Origin: an uncultured Bacteroidales bacterium
GTDB taxonomy: Bacteria > Bacteroidota > Bacteroidia > Bacteroidales > JAIPAH01
Direction: 5' to 3'
DNA length: 64,000 nucleotides
Assembly: GCA_964465045.1 (NCBI GenBank)
Contig: CAYXJS010000001.1
Coordinates: 54,924 to 118,923 of the forward strand
In this document: positions 26,741-51,488 of the stretch, piece after piece
Position numbering within the stretch: the stretch's first letter is position 1
Layout: each line of letters starts with the position of its first letter
Notes under the pieces: model-generated
Database searches by the model: none
The model's input: only the letters and a program-made list of their open reading frames with translations
What the model was told of the DNA's origin: nothing
Program-made: the position numbers and the translations under genes

Positions 26741-27856
26741 TCAGGCTTCAGCCTCACCCCATTTCAACGGTCGTTTTTTGTCGCCGGCCAGATAAAGGGT
26801 TTGTGTGGGGAATGCAAAGTCGATACCTTCCTCATTAAAACGATGCAGGATTTCATGATTAACCCACTCTGTAAACTGCATATAAGCCCAATAGTCAGGC
26901 GGATGATACCAGTAGATAAACATGATGTTGAGCGAATCGCTATTCAGCTCGCTGAAATATACCTTAGGCGGCAAGTCTTCTTTCATGCCTTCATGATTAT
27001 CCAGAATTTCTTTCATGATTTCTACGGCCCGTTTTAATTTTTCAGGAGAAGTATCGTAAGTAACCGTAACATTTCCCACTCTGCGAATAAAAGGGCGTTT
27101 CCCAATGTTTTGAATTGTCCGGTTGGCCAATTCACCGTTGGGAATAGACACAAGATGACCAGCCAGCGTACGAATCTGTGTGCTTCGCATTCCTACTGAT
27201 TCTACCATGCCATCATGACCGTCTATTACAACACGTTCGCCAATATCAAAAGGCTTGTCGCCGGCAATTATGAAAGAACCGAAAAAATGCTTGATGGTGT
27301 CCTGAGCAGCCAGTGCAACAGCTAATCCGCCAATACCTAAACCTGCAATAACAGACGTTAATGGCTTGTCGCTGAAAAGCTGAAATATCTGAACAAATAC
27401 CAGCACAAGGATTATACCTCTCAGCGTTTTCCGGATGGCCGGTGTAAACATTTTACTAACCGAGCTTTCATTCTTCTGCATTAACTCTTCAAACCATACA
27501 CCTGGCGCGTCCATCAGATAATAACCTAATCTTCCGATAGCTAAAATCATCAACACAGAAGAAACAGTGTTTACGATGCCTTCATATCTTCCTGGATAAT
27601 TAAGCATTACGGAAAGAATCATCAGTCCGGATGCAATCAAAATAAACGTAATGGATTTAGAAACCGCATTAAACAAAGCTGCTGCAACTTTTTTTTCTGA
27701 ACGCAAAACACGGTTAGCGTTGCGCTTTAAAATCATTTTTATCAGTCTGCCCAAACCCCATAACAAGATTAAAATTATAGCAATTAAAAGCCCCTGCATA
27801 AATAAATTACCCTGCGTTATTTCTTTTGAAAATTGTTCAAGTGATTCCATAATCAA
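26741..27856 (-). CDS. Mechanosensitive ion channel family protein (MscS-like)
   Basis: N-terminal TMs, then the conserved beta-domain FDIGERVVIDGHDGMVESVGMRSTQIRT. Confidence 0.85.
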   Translation of the reverse strand: MIMESLEQFSKEITQGNLFMQGLLIAIILILLWGLGRLIKMILKRNANRVLRSEKKVAAALFNAVSKSITFILIASGLMILSVMLNYPGRYEGIVNTVSSVLMILAIGRLGYYLMDAPGVWFEELMQKNESSVSKMFTPAIRKTLRGIILVLVFVQIFQLFSDKPLTSVIAGLGIGGLAVALAAQDTIKHFFGSFIIAGDKPFDIGERVVIDGHDGMVESVGMRSTQIRTLAGHLVSIPNGELANRTIQNIGKRPFIRRVGNVTVTYDTSPEKLKRAVEIMKEILDNHEGMKEDLPPKVYFSELNSDSLNIMFIYWYHPPDYWAYMQFTEWVNHEILHRFNEEGIDFAFPTQTLYLAGDKKRPLKWGEAEA

Positions 27857-27950
27857 TAAATTTTATCTTTCTGTTGCGATTTGTTTAACATTTAAACTTT
27901 GCTAAAAAAAAATTGTTATCAGTTTACGTTAGTTTATCAAACAAAATGCA

Positions 27951-30338
27951 ATGAAACTTCGATCGTCTATTATTTTAATCTTTCTAAGCGCCACATTAGC
28001 AAGCTTTGCACAGAGCGGCAAAATCAAAGGTCGTGTTACTGATGCCAGTAACAATGAACCTCTTCCTTTTTCAAATTTAGTAATTTATGGCACACAAACC
28101 GGATCTACGAGTGACATGGATGGAAATTTCACGTTTACAGGCGTTGAGCCCGGATTTGTGAAACTCAAGGTCAGCTCGGTAGGCTATAAATCCAAAGTTA
28201 CGGAAGAAATCAGGGTAAACAATAACAAAACCACTTACATCGATATTCAGTTAGAAAAAACCTCGATTGATTTGGACGAAGTTACCGTAAGAGCATCTTC
28301 TTTTAAGCGTAGTGAAGAAAGTCCGACTTCGTTAAGAACCTTAGGTATTGGTGAAATAGAAAAAACCCCGGGAGCTAACCGCGATATTTCGAGGGTAATC
28401 CAATCTTTACCCGGTGTTTCATCCTCAGTAGCTTTTCGCAATGATGTTATTGTGCGTGGAGGTGGTCCAAATGAAAATTCTTTTTTTCTTGATGGCGTGG
28501 AGATACCCACCCTTAACCACTTTAGCACCCAGGGCGCTTCAGGCGGACCTGTAGGTATTGTAAATGCAGACTTTATCAGGGAAGTAGACTTTTACTCAGG
28601 CGCTTTTCCAGCTTCCAAAGGAAAATCATTAAGTTCGGTTCTGGATTTCAAAATGAAAGAGGGAAACCAGGAATCCATGAACATCAAAGGGACAGTTGGA
28701 GCCTCTGACCTGGCGCTTACTTTCGACGGCCCACTGAGCGAAAACACCACACTGATTGCTTCAGCACGACGATCTTACCTGCAGTTTCTTTTTGATATAA
28801 TCGGATTACCATTCCTGCCCACCTACAATGATTTTCAATTTAAATCCCGCACCAAAATTGATAATAAAAACGAACTGATTTTTTTAGGAATTGGCGCCAT
28901 TGACCAGTTTGAGTTAAATACAGAACTGGAAGACCCCACTGACGACCAGCGATATCTTATAAACAACCTGCCTATCAATGAGCAATGGAGCTATACAGTT
29001 GGCGGCGTTTACAAACATTTTAGGGATAATGGATTTGACCAGCTTGTAATAAGCCGCAATACACTAAATAACAGCGCTTATAAATATCAAAACAACGATG
29101 ACAGCTCTGAAGACAACTTGCTTTTTGACCTGGAATCCGTGGAAGCGGAAAACAAAATTCGTTTTGAACACAAAGGCCGCTTTGATGGATTTAAATACAC
29201 ATACGGAGCCGGCTTCGAAAATGCGTTGTATACTTTATCACTTTATAACGAATCGCTCATCAACAACGAAATTGTGGTTTTCAATAACAATAATGAACTC
29301 TCACTAAACGCCTGGTCTGCTTTCGGTCAAATAAGCAAGGGCTTTTTTGGTGAACGGCTTACACTCTCCCTGGGTCTGCGTGCCGATGCCAACGACTATT
29401 CCGATGATATGAACAACATGCTGGAGCAATTCTCTCCCCGTTTTTCTGCTTCTTACGGCCTTAATGAAAAAGTATTTCTGAATTTCAACACCGGCATCTA
29501 CTATCAAAAGCCGGCTTACACAACACTGGGATATCGCGATCAAAACAATGTACTCATCAATAAAGAAAACAACATCACATTCATTCGCTCCGACCACCTG
29601 GTTGGTGGCCTCGAATGGCGACCCAATGAAAATGCAAAAATAACCGGGGAGCTTTTTTACAAAACGTACAACGATTACCCGTTTTCCGTTCAGGACAGCG
29701 TGGCTCTGAGCAGCAAAGGCGCCGATTTTGGCGTGTTTGGAGATGAAGAAGTAACCTCCACGGGCGCTGGCAGAGCTTATGGTTTTGAGTTTTACACGCG
29801 TTTGCCTTCCATTCGCGATTACAACATCATTTTGTCTTATACCCTCGTGCGAAGCGAGTTTCAGGATGCAAACAAAGAATATATCCCGACGGCATGGGAC
29901 AACAAACATATCCTTAACCTCACAGCGCGCAGGTCTTTTAAAAACAACTGGGATGCCGGGCTAAAATGGCGCTACGTTGGAGGTTCGCCATACACGCCAT
30001 ATGATGTGGAAAAATCAGAGCAACGCCAATTCTGGGACTTGCAAAACGAACCCTATCTGAATTATGACAGGTTTAATCAGCGTCGCTTAAGCGGATTTCA
30101 TCAACTTGATATTCGTATAGACAAAACCTATTATTTTGACAAATGGACGCTCGGTTTGTATCTTGATGTACAGAATTTATATAATTTCTCAGCTGAAAGT
30201 CAGGACATCCTGACTAACCTTGATGAAGAAGGTAATCCAAACATTGATCCGGACAACCCGGATGAGTATGACTTAAGACGTATTAACGATGAGAGTGGCA
30301 CTGTTTTGCCATCCGTAGGAATTACAGTAGAATTTTAA
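27951..30338 (+). CDS. TonB-dependent receptor-like outer-membrane protein with an N-terminal CarboxypepD_reg domain
   Basis: Signal peptide. GKIKGRVTDASNNEPLPFSNLVIYGT...DGNFTF, plug region, C-terminal beta-barrel ending in ...VGITVEF. Confidence 0.8.
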   Translation: MKLRSSIILIFLSATLASFAQSGKIKGRVTDASNNEPLPFSNLVIYGTQTGSTSDMDGNFTFTGVEPGFVKLKVSSVGYKSKVTEEIRVNNNKTTYIDIQLEKTSIDLDEVTVRASSFKRSEESPTSLRTLGIGEIEKTPGANRDISRVIQSLPGVSSSVAFRNDVIVRGGGPNENSFFLDGVEIPTLNHFSTQGASGGPVGIVNADFIREVDFYSGAFPASKGKSLSSVLDFKMKEGNQESMNIKGTVGASDLALTFDGPLSENTTLIASARRSYLQFLFDIIGLPFLPTYNDFQFKSRTKIDNKNELIFLGIGAIDQFELNTELEDPTDDQRYLINNLPINEQWSYTVGGVYKHFRDNGFDQLVISRNTLNNSAYKYQNNDDSSEDNLLFDLESVEAENKIRFEHKGRFDGFKYTYGAGFENALYTLSLYNESLINNEIVVFNNNNELSLNAWSAFGQISKGFFGERLTLSLGLRADANDYSDDMNNMLEQFSPRFSASYGLNEKVFLNFNTGIYYQKPAYTTLGYRDQNNVLINKENNITFIRSDHLVGGLEWRPNENAKITGELFYKTYNDYPFSVQDSVALSSKGADFGVFGDEEVTSTGAGRAYGFEFYTRLPSIRDYNIILSYTLVRSEFQDANKEYIPTAWDNKHILNLTARRSFKNNWDAGLKWRYVGGSPYTPYDVEKSEQRQFWDLQNEPYLNYDRFNQRRLSGFHQLDIRIDKTYYFDKWTLGLYLDVQNLYNFSAESQDILTNLDEEGNPNIDPDNPDEYDLRRINDESGTVLPSVGITVEF

Positions 30339-45894: not shown

Positions 45895-46458
45895 CTAATT
45901 TTTAATCTTCGGATCAGTGCAAAACTTTTCCGGATGATAGGCATGCAGGTTCTGGTAATACGTTTTAAATTCTTCAAAATCTTCCTTCAGGTCGCCACTT
46001 GGATAAACCAGCTTTTTAACCCCGGCCTTTTTGTATTTATAATCCAGGTATCCTAATGCAACAGGCACTTGGGCTTCAATAGCAATGTAATAAAAGCCTT
46101 TTTTCCAGTATTTGGTATATTTCCGGGTTCCCTCAGGGGTTATCACCAAAACCAGTTTTTCAGCTTGGTTGAAGTGGTCGGCAAGCTGATGCACAAGATT
46201 ATTTCTTTTCCCTCTTTGTACAGGTATTCCACCCATCTTTTTCAACAACCCTCCAAAAGGAAAAGAAAAAGCTTCTTCTTTAATCAGGAATTTAACCGGC
46301 AAGCCAACTATATTGAACACCAATCTTCCGATAAAAAAATCGTAGTTAGTTGTGTGCGGTGCAACCAGCATTACAACCTTTCTGACATCAGAAGGCATAT
46401 TCACTTCTATTTTCCAACCCAGCATTTTAAGCATCAATCTGCTAAATAGTTTAATCAT
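45895..46458 (-). CDS. 1-acyl-sn-glycerol-3-phosphate acyltransferase family protein
   Basis: HX4D motif (APHTTNYD) and ITPEGTR block. 187 aa. Confidence 0.8.
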   Translation of the reverse strand: MIKLFSRLMLKMLGWKIEVNMPSDVRKVVMLVAPHTTNYDFFIGRLVFNIVGLPVKFLIKEEAFSFPFGGLLKKMGGIPVQRGKRNNLVHQLADHFNQAEKLVLVITPEGTRKYTKYWKKGFYYIAIEAQVPVALGYLDYKYKKAGVKKLVYPSGDLKEDFEEFKTYYQNLHAYHPEKFCTDPKIKN

Positions 46459-47339
46459 GATGCATTATTTGGCACATAATTTTCGGCACTTTGGCAAACT
46501 TTTGCAGCAGTTGCAATCCCTTTGGATATGGCCTGATGCCAGAAACCAAGTGATTTTTCATGCAACTGCTCTCGCAGTAGCTTTTCCTCTGTAAGCGCCC
46601 GAATAAACCCGGCATTAAAAGCATCGCCGGCTCCGGTGGTGTTTACCGGCTCAATTGTTTTCACCGGAATTTTAAGTTTCTCCCCCCGATGCATAAAAAC
46701 TACCGGTTGGTTCCCTCGTGTCATAACCATGAATTTTTCAGGAAATCTTTCGCAGACTTCTCCGGCATTCATCCCTAATGCTGCGGAATCTTCATCTGAG
46801 AATTTTACGATATCAGCCTGCGCTATTCGCTGCATGGCTTTATCATACGCCCCTTCAAACTGAAAAGCACATTTCTTTCGGATATTAGGATCATAAACCT
46901 GAATTGACTCCGCTTTTTGGGCAGATTCAATCCAGGCATCCACCTCCGCAGAAGTTTTAGGATGAATAGCGAAAGACGATCCATAAAGCAAAATATCTTC
47001 CTGTTTCAACGGGGACAGCAAAACCTGTTCAGCCGGTTTAGTTTCACCGTAAAAGGTATAAACCGGCTTTTTGGCTTCGTTAAGGAATGCAACAGCCAAA
47101 GAGGTTTGCTGAGACCTAGATGTTTGTATATAACCCGTGCCAACATGATTCTTCTTCAAGAATCGTAAAATCATGTCGCCCAGCGGGTCTTGACCCAACG
47201 TTGTTACCAGTTGCACATCAGCGCCTAAACGACCGAGAGAAACAGCTATGTTAAGCATAGAGCCGCCCGGAGCTCCACCAGTAAGGCGGTCATCCTCAAA
47301 AAAAATATCATAGTTGTTATTGCCAATGCAGTATACCAT
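46455..47339 (-). CDS. PfkB-family carbohydrate kinase (fructokinase-like)
   Basis: GGAPGGSMLNIAVSLGRLG N-terminus and TTGAGDAFNAG C-terminal motif. Confidence 0.85.
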   Translation of the reverse strand: MVYCIGNNNYDIFFEDDRLTGGAPGGSMLNIAVSLGRLGADVQLVTTLGQDPLGDMILRFLKKNHVGTGYIQTSRSQQTSLAVAFLNEAKKPVYTFYGETKPAEQVLLSPLKQEDILLYGSSFAIHPKTSAEVDAWIESAQKAESIQVYDPNIRKKCAFQFEGAYDKAMQRIAQADIVKFSDEDSAALGMNAGEVCERFPEKFMVMTRGNQPVVFMHRGEKLKIPVKTIEPVNTTGAGDAFNAGFIRALTEEKLLREQLHEKSLGFWHQAISKGIATAAKVCQSAENYVPNNAS

Positions 47340-47342
47340 GCT

Positions 47343-47951
47343 TTATATGTCGTAATCCAGGTCTAATTTGTCTTTAAGTAACTTCAATACCGGATTTTTT
47401 TTGGCAAGATATTCAAATTTATCCTTGTTTGTATACGGCCTGCTATCAATCATGCTTTTTTCTTTTGCAATTTTTACGGTTAAATCAACCACCTTGTTTT
47501 TGAGTCTCGTCCTCAGAGCGCCCAGGATATGTCTTTTATTGGAATTGATTTCCCCGTATTCCAGCTTATTGCTCACATAAAACGTAATGAAATGATTCTT
47601 TTCATCCAGCTCAAGCTTTCCGGATTTCATGGCGGCAAACAGCGATCCTGCCCCCCGTGTCATCGCCATCATTATCGCTTCCCATACTTCCTGAAGCTCT
47701 TCCAGGGTAAGCTCACGTGCATTTTTATAATCTTCATCCGTAAGCTGGTTCAACGGATGAATTCCATCCTCGGCTTCTTCATTTTTACCGGCGACATTTT
47801 GAAACGAATTTTTACCCAATTCATTTCCTGAAACCGGCTTTGATGTGGTTCTTACTGCTTTCCTGGTTTCTTTCTGGAATTGATCACTAATCGACTTTTG
47901 TGCGGGCGCTTTGGCTTTCTTTTCAAGAAACGGGGGCGCTATGATGCTGAC
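47343..47951 (-). CDS. dnaX: dnaX -1-frame continuation: tau-specific C-terminal 202 aa, with no independent ATG
   Basis: The frame is open from G47951 (VSIIAPPFLEKKAKAPAQKS...) into tracked ORF 47343..47819, which 'starts' at an internal TTG. It is reached from the dnaX 0 frame by a -1 shift at the A9 tract. Confidence 0.7.
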   Translation of the reverse strand, partial: VSIIAPPFLEKKAKAPAQKSISDQFQKETRKAVRTTSKPVSGNELGKNSFQNVAGKNEEAEDGIHPLNQLTDEDYKNARELTLEELQEVWEAIMMAMTRGAGSLFAAMKSGKLELDEKNHFITFYVSNKLEYGEINSNKRHILGALRTRLKNKVVDLTVKIAKEKSMIDSRPYTNKDKFEYLAKKNPVLKLLKDKLDLDYDI

Positions 47952-49069
47952 TTTTTTTTTAAATCACTACCTGTTTGGGATGTTATCGAACAGATTTGCA
48001 ACAGCGAAATCTCAGTATGCAGCCGTTTATTGTTGCTGCCTTTATAGTCGATATCAGCACGGCTCACAACATCAAGTGCTGTTGTGAGAAATGCCATATC
48101 GCAGTTTTTAGTTTGCTCACGATATCTTTCCCGGATGTTCTCTCCTACTTCAAGCAAATCTACGGTTCCGTCATCCTTGCTTACCAGCAAATTTCTCAGG
48201 TGGTCGCCAAGTCCGGTAATGAAATGATGGCTGTCAAATCCTGCATCAATAATTTCATTCAAAGTATTCAGTGCTGCGGAAGTATCATTTTTTAAAGCAC
48301 TATCTATTAACCGAAAATAATAATCGTAATCCAATACATTCAGATTATCAATCACATCCTGATAAGTAAATGTTTTTCCAGCAAAACTAACAATCTGGTC
48401 AAAAATAGAGAATGCATCGCGTAAAGCGCCATCGGCTTTTTGTGCGATGATTTGCAGCCCGTCTGTTTCTGCGTTTACATTTTCTCGTTCGCTTACGCTT
48501 TGAAGATGAGCTACAATATCTTTTACTTGTATTCTTTTGAAGTCAAAAATCTGGCAGCGAGACAGAATAGTAGGGATAATCTTGTGTTTCTCCGTAGTAG
48601 CCAGGATAAACTTTGCATATGAGGGAGGTTCTTCCAGGGTTTTGAGAAAGGCGTTAAAGGCCTGCTGAGACAACATATGCACCTCATCAATAATGTAGAC
48701 TTTATATTTTCCGTCTTGTGGCGGGATACGAACCTGGTCTACAAGGCTGCGGATATCATCTACAGAATTATTTGAAGCCGCATCTAATTCATGGATATTG
48801 AAAGAAGTATTCTCTTTAAAGCGCTTACAGGAATCGCATTCATTACACGCCTCTCCCTCTTCTGTGATAGCCTGGCAATTAATGGTCTGAGCCATTATCC
48901 TTGCACAGGTGGTTTTCCCCACACCACGCGGACCGCAAAACAAAAACGACTGTGCCAACTGATCGTTTTTGATGGCATTTTTTAGTGTAACAGTAATGGC
49001 TTCCTGCCCTACAACCTCTTTAAAACTTGTCGGCCGGTATTTCCGGGCCGAAACAACATAATTATCCAT
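47939..49069 (-). CDS. dnaX: DNA polymerase III subunit gamma/tau, 0-frame product (376 aa, domains I-III, gamma-like)
   Basis: RKYRPTSFKEVVGQE, Walker A GPRGVGKTT, Zn module CNECDSC, DEVHML, SRC motif LSRCQ. Confidence 0.9.
   Translation of the reverse strand: MDNYVVSARKYRPTSFKEVVGQEAITVTLKNAIKNDQLAQSFLFCGPRGVGKTTCARIMAQTINCQAITEEGEACNECDSCKRFKENTSFNIHELDAASNNSVDDIRSLVDQVRIPPQDGKYKVYIIDEVHMLSQQAFNAFLKTLEEPPSYAKFILATTEKHKIIPTILSRCQIFDFKRIQVKDIVAHLQSVSERENVNAETDGLQIIAQKADGALRDAFSIFDQIVSFAGKTFTYQDVIDNLNVLDYDYYFRLIDSALKNDTSAALNTLNEIIDAGFDSHHFITGLGDHLRNLLVSKDDGTVDLLEVGENIRERYREQTKNCDMAFLTTALDVVSRADIDYKGSNNKRLHTEISLLQICSITSQTGSDLKKKSAS
47951..47960 (-). other. Recoding or error-prone site: A9 tract containing an A_AAA_AAG heptamer in dnaX
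   Basis: The minus strand reads GAT TTA AAA AAA AAG TCA GCA TCA TAG. The heptamer is in the same phase as the E. coli dnaX slippery site, and the A9 length equals the T. thermophilus dnaX slippage tract. Confidence 0.6.
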
Positions 49070-49087
49070 ATCGCTGATATTTCATGT

Positions 49088-49095
49088 CAAAATTA
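49088..49095 (-). promoter_or_regulatory. -7 promoter box (TAATTTTG on the minus strand) for dnaX
   Basis: Exact TAnnTTTG match, 18 nt upstream of ATG 49069. Confidence 0.4.
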
Positions 49096-49136
49096 TAAAA
49101 ACTTTTGGAAGCAAAAACGCCATTGGAAAATCCATA

Positions 49137-51488
49137 TTAAAAGGGATATCCGATTCCGAAGTTCCATACCAAGTCTTTAACCTTCATATCAAAGACCGAC
49201 CTCCAGCGATTTCCCGGCTCCTTGTCGGGCATCCTGACAGGCATAGCGGCATCGATCCTGATTATAAAAAACTGTAAATCTACTCTGAACCCCAGACCGG
49301 CATCCAGCGCCATCTGATTCAAAAACCTATCAGCCGTAAAATGACCGTCAGGATAGCTGTTGCTTTCATCAAGCAGCCAAATATTTCCTGCATCCATAAA
49401 TAAGGCCCCATTAAGATAGCTGTATATTGGGAAACGATATTCTGTGCTGAATTCCAGCAAAATATCACCAATCCGATCATAACTGGCCTGCTCCAAATCG
49501 CTGTATCCACCCGGCCCCAGTGATCGCACCTCCCAACCGCGCAATCCGTTAGCTCCCCCCGCATAAAACCCTTTCTCAAACGGCAATGCATCAGAGTTAC
49601 CGTAGGGTAAACCAATGCCCATCATAGACCGGAATACAAGTGTATTTCCCTTGTCCAGATAATGGTAGTAACGAAAATCAAAATCGGTTCTCAAAAACTG
49701 TGCAAATCGGATGTTGAACAAAGTAGAATAGTTATCTTGCTGCTCACCCAGTCCGGTATTCCTGTTCAGGAAGTTCAACAGCAAACCGGATGTTTCAATA
49801 TTTGCACGTAAAAAGAAAAAATCCTGATTTTTGCTTACGTTCTGCGTATTCCATATAAACGAGTATTTCATGGAAGCAATCAGGTGGTCGGTATATTGTT
49901 CCTGATATTTCTGGTCCAATTGAGAAAGTCGTTCCTGGAATCCTGGTTCAGTAAAGATTTTTATCGCATTGAGATCTATTGGCGACAGGATATGCCTTTT
50001 TGCTTTCGATTGCCGCCATCGATAGCCCAAAGAAACGTTCGCCAGATAGCGTGTGTAGTCAGTTCGTCTTTGATAATTGTAACCTCCGCGTATGTTAGTT
50101 GTCGGATGATAATCCCTGGAAAAGAATTCCGGGGCTACCGGCAATAAAAATTTTGGCAGGTTCAGGTTAATATCTGCTCCGCCTTCAATGGTATTAAAAA
50201 ATAAGAAACCATCATCCCGGGCCGGTGATGTATTAGATTGGGCCTCCAGTGCACCACTAAGGCTCAAATCTAAGACCTCTCCTCCTCTAAAAATATTTTT
50301 GTTCTGGTAAACCAAGCGTGCTGCAATCCCGGGACGCCCGGCCATATTTGTACCCTCCGTTTCCGCACTTACAGAATGAATATCCATACGATTGATGCGG
50401 ATTTTGCAATCAAGAAATCCCAGGGTATCACTATCGCTTTTGCTATCATTTTCAGGAAAATCCATGCTAACAAACTGCGTAATGTTAAGCCCGGCGAGCC
50501 CATCATAGGTTTTCTGCACCTGCCTGAAATCATAATATCTGTTGTTCTTTAGTGATATCCGCCTGGCGTAGGTCTTCGGCTTCACACGTATCGGTTTATT
50601 ATGAACAAATTTCAGGGTTGTACTATCCGAGGCCTTTTTGTTTTTTCGATAATGTATCACCAACGTATCCGTCTCTGATTCATCAGAAAAGATCGTTTGA
50701 TCGGGATTGATAATGATATCATCAATTTTGAATCGTTTGTGTGGTCTGATCAAATCGGCTGTATCAGGACGTGAAGTAATTTTCCGGGGCAAAAGGTCCA
50801 TGTATAAATCTACTTGATTACTGCTCAGAGCGCTATCTACCCTGTAACGAACAAAGTCTTTGCTGAACCGGTAATATCCCTTTTCCCGGAGCCGTTGTGT
50901 TATCCTCCCCCGCTCCTTGTCAAGGATATCCACATCATAGACATCTTCCTCTTTAATCAACGCCTGAGCTGTATCTGCCAAAACAAATGGCCTCAATGTA
51001 GAATCTCTGAAAACGTATTCAATATTACGTATTCGATAAGGATTACCGGTTTTTACGTAATAGGTTACACGGGCTTTATCTCTATCATCCACTTGATGAT
51101 CAACGTTAGCATTAAAATACCCCTTTGAGAACAGCCACTCTTCCATTTGCGATGCCGAGGCAATAGCAAGCGATTTATCAAAATAAACCGGTGACTCAGC
51201 AAAATTTCGCATCATCCATTGGTTAACCTTGCCGGGATCCTCTTTATCAAGCTTCTCGTAAAGCCAGGGCTTAAACCAAAAGACCCCCAATATCCGGGAG
51301 TTGGATTCTTGCTGAATAAACCCCGACAGCGTGCTTTTATCAACTTTTTTGGCTCCCTCTACCTGCACCTCATTGTCCATTAAAAGCGGCCTTTCATTAA
51401 GCCGTTTAGAAGGCATACATCCACTCATAACCACAACAACAAATATTGCTGCAAATAAGAATAAGCGTGTAAAATGATACGTTTTCAT
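49137..51488 (-). CDS. Omp85-family outer-membrane protein with a lipoprotein signal (TamL-like BamA/TamA homolog)
   Basis: Lipobox VVVMSGC, POTRA-like region, C-terminal barrel ending in ...NFGIGYPF. Confidence 0.7.
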   Translation of the reverse strand: MKTYHFTRLFLFAAIFVVVVMSGCMPSKRLNERPLLMDNEVQVEGAKKVDKSTLSGFIQQESNSRILGVFWFKPWLYEKLDKEDPGKVNQWMMRNFAESPVYFDKSLAIASASQMEEWLFSKGYFNANVDHQVDDRDKARVTYYVKTGNPYRIRNIEYVFRDSTLRPFVLADTAQALIKEEDVYDVDILDKERGRITQRLREKGYYRFSKDFVRYRVDSALSSNQVDLYMDLLPRKITSRPDTADLIRPHKRFKIDDIIINPDQTIFSDESETDTLVIHYRKNKKASDSTTLKFVHNKPIRVKPKTYARRISLKNNRYYDFRQVQKTYDGLAGLNITQFVSMDFPENDSKSDSDTLGFLDCKIRINRMDIHSVSAETEGTNMAGRPGIAARLVYQNKNIFRGGEVLDLSLSGALEAQSNTSPARDDGFLFFNTIEGGADINLNLPKFLLPVAPEFFSRDYHPTTNIRGGYNYQRRTDYTRYLANVSLGYRWRQSKAKRHILSPIDLNAIKIFTEPGFQERLSQLDQKYQEQYTDHLIASMKYSFIWNTQNVSKNQDFFFLRANIETSGLLLNFLNRNTGLGEQQDNYSTLFNIRFAQFLRTDFDFRYYHYLDKGNTLVFRSMMGIGLPYGNSDALPFEKGFYAGGANGLRGWEVRSLGPGGYSDLEQASYDRIGDILLEFSTEYRFPIYSYLNGALFMDAGNIWLLDESNSYPDGHFTADRFLNQMALDAGLGFRVDLQFFIIRIDAAMPVRMPDKEPGNRWRSVFDMKVKDLVWNFGIGYPF

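Follow-up and report, generated by a model that had tools for sequence, protein, structure and literature searches.

A Split dnaX Gene Conserved in an Uncultured Bacteroidota Clade, With Tau Probably Reached by Transcriptional Slippage at a Poly-A Run

We describe dnaX in a 64-kb stretch of DNA from an uncultured Bacteroidales bacterium (contig CAYXJS010000001.1 of assembly GCA_964465045.1; hereafter the window, meaning this stretch over its whole length), in which the gene is divided between two reading frames at a run of nine A's. The split is real, conserved and functionally meaningful, and we consider it very likely that the two frames constitute one dnaX gene with a conserved recoding site at which recoding is required to make tau. 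From the comparative data presented below, transcriptional slippage at the A run is probably the main route to this long subunit. Tau is essential in E. coli, and the window provides one more well-supported case in which this replisome subunit would be reachable only by non-standard decoding. The arrangement is not new, having been known since 2013, and it opens no new question; what the window adds is an uncultured Bacteroidota clade in which the run takes the form of nine A's followed by G (A9G).

Organization of the dnaX Locus

The elements of the locus are all on the minus strand and are as follows (ORF, open reading frame; aa, amino acids).

47939..49069, minus strand: dnaX 0-frame ORF, encoding a 376-aa gamma-like product with domains I-III, TAG included
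47952..47960, minus strand: A9 homopolymer (T9 on the template strand) in the register TT[A AAA AAA AA]G, the proposed RNA polymerase slippage site
47951..47957, minus strand: A_AAA_AAG heptamer in the 0-frame register, a possible -1 ribosomal shift site
47939..47941, minus strand: 0-frame TAG stop three codons past the A run, ending the gamma-like product
47923..47925, minus strand: +1-frame TGA, closing the +1 frame soon after the run
47343..47951, minus strand: -1-frame ORF of 202 codons plus stop, the tau-specific linker and C-terminal region, with no start codon of its own near the 5' end
47343..47819, minus strand: ORF from a mechanical caller inside the -1 frame, 158 aa, its start being an internal TTG

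The 0 frame of dnaX ends ...GGT AGT GAT TTA AAA AAA AAG TCA GCA TCA TAG, and 202 uninterrupted codons of the -1 frame (VSIIAPPFLEKKAKAPAQKS...LDLDYDI*) extend from G47951, directly 3' of the A9 run, to position 47343, such that a fusion of the two frames would be a protein of 575 aa. A preliminary description of this DNA had reported this 0-frame sequence, the stop at 47939, the 376-aa product, the 202-codon -1 frame, the ORF with the TTG start and the 575-aa fusion, and all of its coordinates hold. It had also placed the end of the 376-aa product directly after domains I-III, and the only domains found in that product are indeed DNA_pol3_delta2 (residues 22-180), DNAX_ATPase_lid (185-231) and DNA_pol3_gamma3 (242-365), with nothing beyond them. 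Its further claim, that full-length tau is available in the -1 frame only, the reverse of the situation in E. coli and Thermus, agrees with the comparative data given below.

The two frames were compared with the NCBIfam model PRK14971, which has 614 positions. The 0-frame part matches it at positions 1-371 with a score of 699 bits (cut-off 685 bits) and the -1 part matches it at positions 435-612 (E = 1.3e-17), so that the two pieces fit one gene. The -1 ORF encodes the C-terminal third of the Bacteroidota DnaX protein. No family was found on the -1 ORF by hmmscan against Pfam, in a copy that apparently does not include PF28557, and a profile of the tau C-terminal region gave no match to the PDB and hence no sequence tie to tau domains IV and V of solved structures.

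Conservation of the Split Gene in Close Relatives

The fused 575-aa protein was used as the query against a collection of 5.8 billion proteins. All 24 of the protein clusters that are 75-100% identical to the N-terminal part are truncated proteins of 373-383 aa that end in (L/V)KKK plus two or three residues. Distant homologues are uninterrupted, with lengths of 560-600 aa and identities of ~66-70% over the shared N-terminal part and 50-55% over the fused query, and the full-length homologues are colinear with 100% of that query. A metagenome scan with the C-terminal part returned no members of the clade; it found distant relatives at no more than 52% identity, apart from two fragments of 30 residues.

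For nine of the truncated clusters, among them the cluster of the window, DNA was obtained by exact-protein look-ups. It comprises 17 loci from NCBI metagenome-assembled genomes (MAGs) and from ENA, JGI and Logan assemblies, among which Illumina contigs built with MEGAHIT or SPAdes are numerous. The run is present in the same register at every one of the 17, as either xxA AAA AAA AAG (A9G) or xxA AAA AAA AAA T (A10T), the latter at three loci (L126-L128), where the heptamer becomes A_AAA_AAA and the AAG is lost. What surrounds the run varies: the codons 5' of it include GAT TTA, GAC TTA, GAA GTA, GGG GTA and GAT CTA, and the 0-frame stop, two or three codons past the run in the relatives, differs in both type (TAG, TAA or TGA) and position. 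The -1 frame is open for ~200 codons at the 15 loci whose contigs reach far enough, the contigs of the other two (L123 and L125) ending early. In most relatives the +1 frame meets its stop 11 codons after the run begins, and in the others at 15 or 21 codons. The A tract and its nearby 0-frame stop, a pairing whose conservation the preliminary description had left to comparison with related genomes, are thus shared by a clade that extends down to ~75% amino-acid identity.

The run is also retained in a way that the heptamer does not explain. The third base of the Leu or Val codon that precedes it is A in all nine distinct sequences (TTA, GTA or CTA), compared with a background of 13-36% for A-ending Leu and Val codons in the same genes, in which synonymous sites are otherwise saturated (proportion of synonymous differences, pS, ~0.8). 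Six A's and a G would be enough for the heptamer, yet this synonymous first A is kept in nine of nine sequences, so that conservation of the run extends past the heptamer. As a separate observation, the base directly 5' of the run (position 47961 in the window; L118-L133) is T in all nine distinct clade sequences, in TTA, GTA and CTA codons, and is variable across the phylum.

The Junction Run Across the Bacteroidota

Species-representative genomes were scanned with the N-terminal protein, and the matches listed include 80 dnaX loci from Bacteroidota (L002-L081), all of them at most 67% identical to the window protein and outside the clade of the window. Among these listed species, 64 of the 80 have a run of A9-A13, mostly A10, at the junction of domain III and the C-terminal region (~codons 355-375). 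The frame in which tau continues after the run is not constant, as it is the 0 frame in 48 of the run-bearing species, the -1 frame in 13 and the +1 frame in three, and the run is followed by C in 27, by T in 19 and by G in 18. In the frame-0 genes both of the other frames close within 3-17 codons, over the part of the table that was read, which is a Thermus-like arrangement.

In a clade resembling the Paludibacteraceae, split genes of 368-373 aa are interleaved with intact ones, in many independent assemblies. An intact gene of 591 aa (L138:2200-2300) has the junction GAC-A9-TAT. The split relatives, L043 and L134-L137 (the latter with 72-88% identity to L043), have GAC-A10-T or G-A11-T there and tau in the +1 frame, and these split forms recur in several independent assemblies. 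A difference of one A is hence sufficient to change the layout, and in the +1 layout a -1 ribosomal shift cannot rescue tau.

A run of this kind with tau in each of the three frames is the signature that would be expected if RNA polymerase mixes A lengths, and a comparison across the phylum therefore offers a comparative signature by which transcriptional slippage can be separated from ribosomal frameshifting. Whether the Bacteroidota as a phylum rely on RNA polymerase slippage at an A9-A13 run to make both DnaX products we regard as an evenly balanced proposition. If they do, the DNA-encoded frame of tau could move freely among 0, -1 and +1 through changes of a single A, gamma would be the default product in the window's clade, and the gamma:tau ratio would be set by the frequency of slippage and might be tuned, for example, by nucleoside triphosphate pools or growth rate. 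In the literature searched we found no description of such an any-frame tau pattern across the phylum or of the +1 layout, the published work having flagged 17 split genes.

Several of the surveyed loci have other junctions. Three Bacteroidales MAGs that by name are probably from gut or rumen (L028:2788-2790, L049:3599-3601 and L051:3602-3604) have no A run at the gamma/tau junction and carry instead an in-frame TAG, in the context CCA TAG ATT GC(A/T) AGG in the first two and ACA TAG ATT GCA AGG in L051, past which the tau C-terminal region continues in frame; this could represent programmed UAG readthrough or a reassigned UAG, and would then be a third way to obtain gamma and tau. In another Bacteroidales MAG (L039:3600-3700) the 0 frame of dnaX ends after 383 codons (...CACGGGAGTGC TAA AAATCC...) with the tau C-terminal region in the +1 frame and no A run of at least 7, a layout that either an error in assembly or another kind of shift site could explain. 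Pontibacter rugosus (L016) has a run of only A7 (GATCAAAAAAAGCTAAGGTAG), with tau in the 0 frame and a -1 frame that closes after three codons, and its junction seems closer to the arrangement in E. coli than to the A10 type.

Proposed Route to Tau

We propose that unslipped A9 transcripts would be translated in the 0 frame as far as the stop three codons past the run, yielding the 376-aa gamma-like subunit with domains I-III. On the nine-base rA:dT hybrid RNA polymerase would slip, leaving some transcripts with one A added (A10) or two removed (A7), and these would place the 202-codon ORF in frame and yield the 575-aa tau, with a junction of ...SDLKKKVSIIAPPF... that would be the same whether it arose from an extra A or by a ribosomal shift. 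Transcripts with one A fewer or two more would enter the +1 frame, which is closed within ~10 codons, and would give a short gamma-like product; these +1-frame variants of gamma, which are to be expected from slippage alone, would end in ...DLKKSQHHSAPVS. A -1 ribosomal shift on the in-register A_AAA_AAG may add to the supply of tau, and the gamma:tau product ratio is something that we infer as part of this model.

No conserved elements that would stimulate a ribosomal shift were found in the RNA on either side of the run. RNAalifold places 0 consensus pairs both in the 70 nucleotides 3' of the run and in the 40 nucleotides 5' of it, and the window's own fold 3' of the run has a minimum free energy of -10.2 kcal/mol (z = -1.0 versus shuffles). 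The weak TTTCTT/AAGAAA stem noted in the preliminary description is present and, at this z-score and with 0 consensus pairs, is not significant, and the view taken there that the absence of a strong downstream hairpin favors transcriptional slippage is supported. No upstream stimulator resembling a Shine-Dalgarno (SD) element was found, as the upstream sequences of the relatives differ and do not share a purine-rich element.

The alternative that survives best has a faithfully copied run and -1 programmed ribosomal frameshifting on A_AAA_AAG as the main source of tau, an E. coli-like mechanism with the outcome reversed. A number of points favor it and weigh against slippage as the main route. 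In the window and in most relatives the A9G run gives A_AAA_AAG in exactly the right register. No heptamer known in E. coli is more prone to shifting, and a ribosomal -1 shift there would yield an identical tau. The -1 layout is the sole one seen in the window's own clade, and the three +1-layout species of the 80-species survey are single MAGs, with recurrence checked for the L043 group only. By the rule of thumb of Antonov et al. (2013; PMC3711429), a single direction of shift indicates ribosomal frameshifting, and in the review of Atkins et al. (2016; PMC5009743) ribosomal frameshifting is considered probable for the reversed dnaX genes, one candidate, from Chlorobium phaeobacteroides, having stimulators like those of E. 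coli.

Set against these points, neither a conserved SD-like element upstream nor a stem-loop downstream was found, the run is kept as a run of at least 9 A's where six A's and a G would do, L126-L128 have lost the AAG and carry A_AAA_AAA T, the base after the run shows no preference for G across the phylum, where tau occurs in every frame, and the +1 layout is real. Taken together, these features favor the transcriptional route. In addition, SD pairing is little used in Bacteroidota, which also counts against a stimulated ribosomal shift. We therefore consider ribosomal frameshifting an unlikely main source of tau, and transcriptional slippage the probable one.

The Downstream Frame as Part of the Same Protein

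The -1 frame is closed upstream of the junction, with a stop 4-7 codons before it in the nine distinct sequences (28 in L133), and because this stop lies so shortly 5' of the junction the run is the sole productive entry into the -1 frame. Conservation of the amino-acid sequence of the -1 ORF begins at the first codon after the run (V/I-S-I/L-I-A-P-P-F-L...). The first possible start codon, in comparison, occurs at codon 16-94, in a place that differs by lineage, and the first ATG at codon 92-111 across the nine sequences (codon 93 in the window). The -1 ORF is under purifying selection from the junction onward, with a ratio of nonsynonymous to synonymous substitution rates (dN/dS) of 0.10 for the window versus L118, the sole usable pair, since synonymous sites are saturated against all of the other relatives.

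These data bear directly on the possibility that the gene has truly split or decayed, leaving a gamma-only DnaX with either a separate C-terminal protein, translated either from an internal start or through reinitiation past the TAG, or a dead remnant. Gene callers do treat the sequence past the junction as an ORF of its own, with 106-188 aa and PF28557 (DUF8439), and there are in-frame TTG and GTG codons within it. Nevertheless, the sequence is conserved from the first -1 codon, 16-94 codons before a first possible start that is itself not conserved, both the A run and the short distance from it to the 0-frame stop are maintained, and the -1 frame is closed just 5' of the run. Neither a dead remnant nor a gene with its own initiation is compatible with conservation from codon 1 and a dN/dS of 0.10, and we judge a true split or decay to be very improbable.

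The weakest alternative, which the preliminary description had left standing, is a homopolymer sequencing or assembly error in an ordinary in-frame tau gene with a true run of A10, and although one missing A would restore the frame, the window apparently derives from a MAG and its close relatives are named as MAGs by their sources, we reject it as scarcely credible, because the split is common to every close relative in many independent samples and assemblers with differing flanking codons and 0-frame stops, one variant (P0009) was by itself seen on 24 contigs, with index entries in 27 blocks of the collection, and none of the 5.8 billion proteins is a fused close relative, which would have ranked first in the search with the fused query. 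Sequencing error, a pseudogene and an independently initiated downstream gene are accordingly all rejected, on the basis of the split in the relatives, the dN/dS of 0.10 and the conservation from codon 1.

In precomputed Pfam tables PF28557 (DUF8439) is found on the stand-alone downstream ORFs in nearly all of L001 and L118-L137, and it is also found at the C-terminus of intact dnaX proteins. At least part of DUF8439 is the C-terminal region of tau, which has been mistaken for a gene of its own. For annotation, the 376-aa "gamma/tau" gene and the separate DUF8439 ORF should be joined as one recoded gene.

Neighboring Genes and Other A/T Runs in the Window

The gene order at 46455-51488 on the minus strand is an Omp85/BamA-like gene (49137..51488), dnaX, a PfkB-family kinase (46455..47339) and an acyltransferase, and the order around dnaX is kept in every clade locus long enough to show its neighbors. 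The window has no Lys-tRNA gene; tRNA-Val is its only tRNA, and an Rfam scan gave nothing apart from tRNA. Long homopolymers are depleted in the window, as there are only two A/T runs of at least 9 compared with ~13 expected from shuffles. The run other than that in dnaX is at 27904-27912 on the plus strand, between an ORF at 26741..27856 (minus strand) and an ORF at 27951..30338 (plus strand), ~40 nucleotides 5' of the ATG of the latter.

Comparison With Known dnaX Systems

The dnaX gene of E. coli has the same A_AAA_AAG just past domain III and likewise gives short and long products with a common N-terminus. The shift in E. coli leads to the short product, however, whereas in the window it would lead to the long one. 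E. coli also uses an upstream SD-like element and a downstream stem-loop, whereas the window has neither and none is conserved in its relatives, and the A run of the window extends past the heptamer and is conserved as a run.

The run itself resembles that in dnaX of Thermus thermophilus (Larsen et al., 2000, as described in PMC3711429 and PMC5009743), which in those accounts also has A9 at the gamma/tau junction, close stops in the frames that do not encode tau, and two products made from mRNAs with a variable number of A's, as is proposed here. The outcome is the opposite, as in Thermus, as so described, the frame in the DNA is that of tau and slipped transcripts give gamma, whereas in the window the DNA frame gives gamma and slipped transcripts would give tau.

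The reversed two-ORF form of dnaX was published by Antonov et al. (2013; PMC3711429) as GeneTack cluster COF_239165634, with members from Flavobacterium, Cytophaga, Chlorobium and others, and was covered again by Sharma et al. (2014; PMC4066793) and in the review of Atkins et al. (2016; PMC5009743). The 2013 set consists of 17 genes from 12 genera, each as two adjacent ORFs, of which 12 have a poly-A run of 7-10 A's; nine of these are A10, including those of Flavobacterium johnsoniae, F. psychrophilum, Cytophaga hutchinsonii and Chlorobium species (PMC3711429). Transcriptional realignment was proposed for the poly-A two-ORF genes by analogy with the experimentally shown slippage at A9 in Thermus thermophilus (PMC3711429, PMC5009743), and in the literature searched we came across no experiment that tests the reversed type.

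The dnaX of the window shares with the two-ORF genes of Antonov et al. the overlapping ORFs with a -1 shift, the poly-A at the junction, a 0-frame gamma stop directly after it and a tau that would need recoding. With a -1 ORF overlap, a junction poly-A, a close 0-frame stop and conservation of all of these in relatives, it is a member of the same type. F. johnsoniae, F. psychrophilum and C. hutchinsonii are Bacteroidota by NCBI taxonomy. The window differs from the Bacteroidetes members of that set in having A9 followed by G where the listed members have A10, and in its host, which belongs to an uncultured Bacteroidota clade outside the 2013 set.

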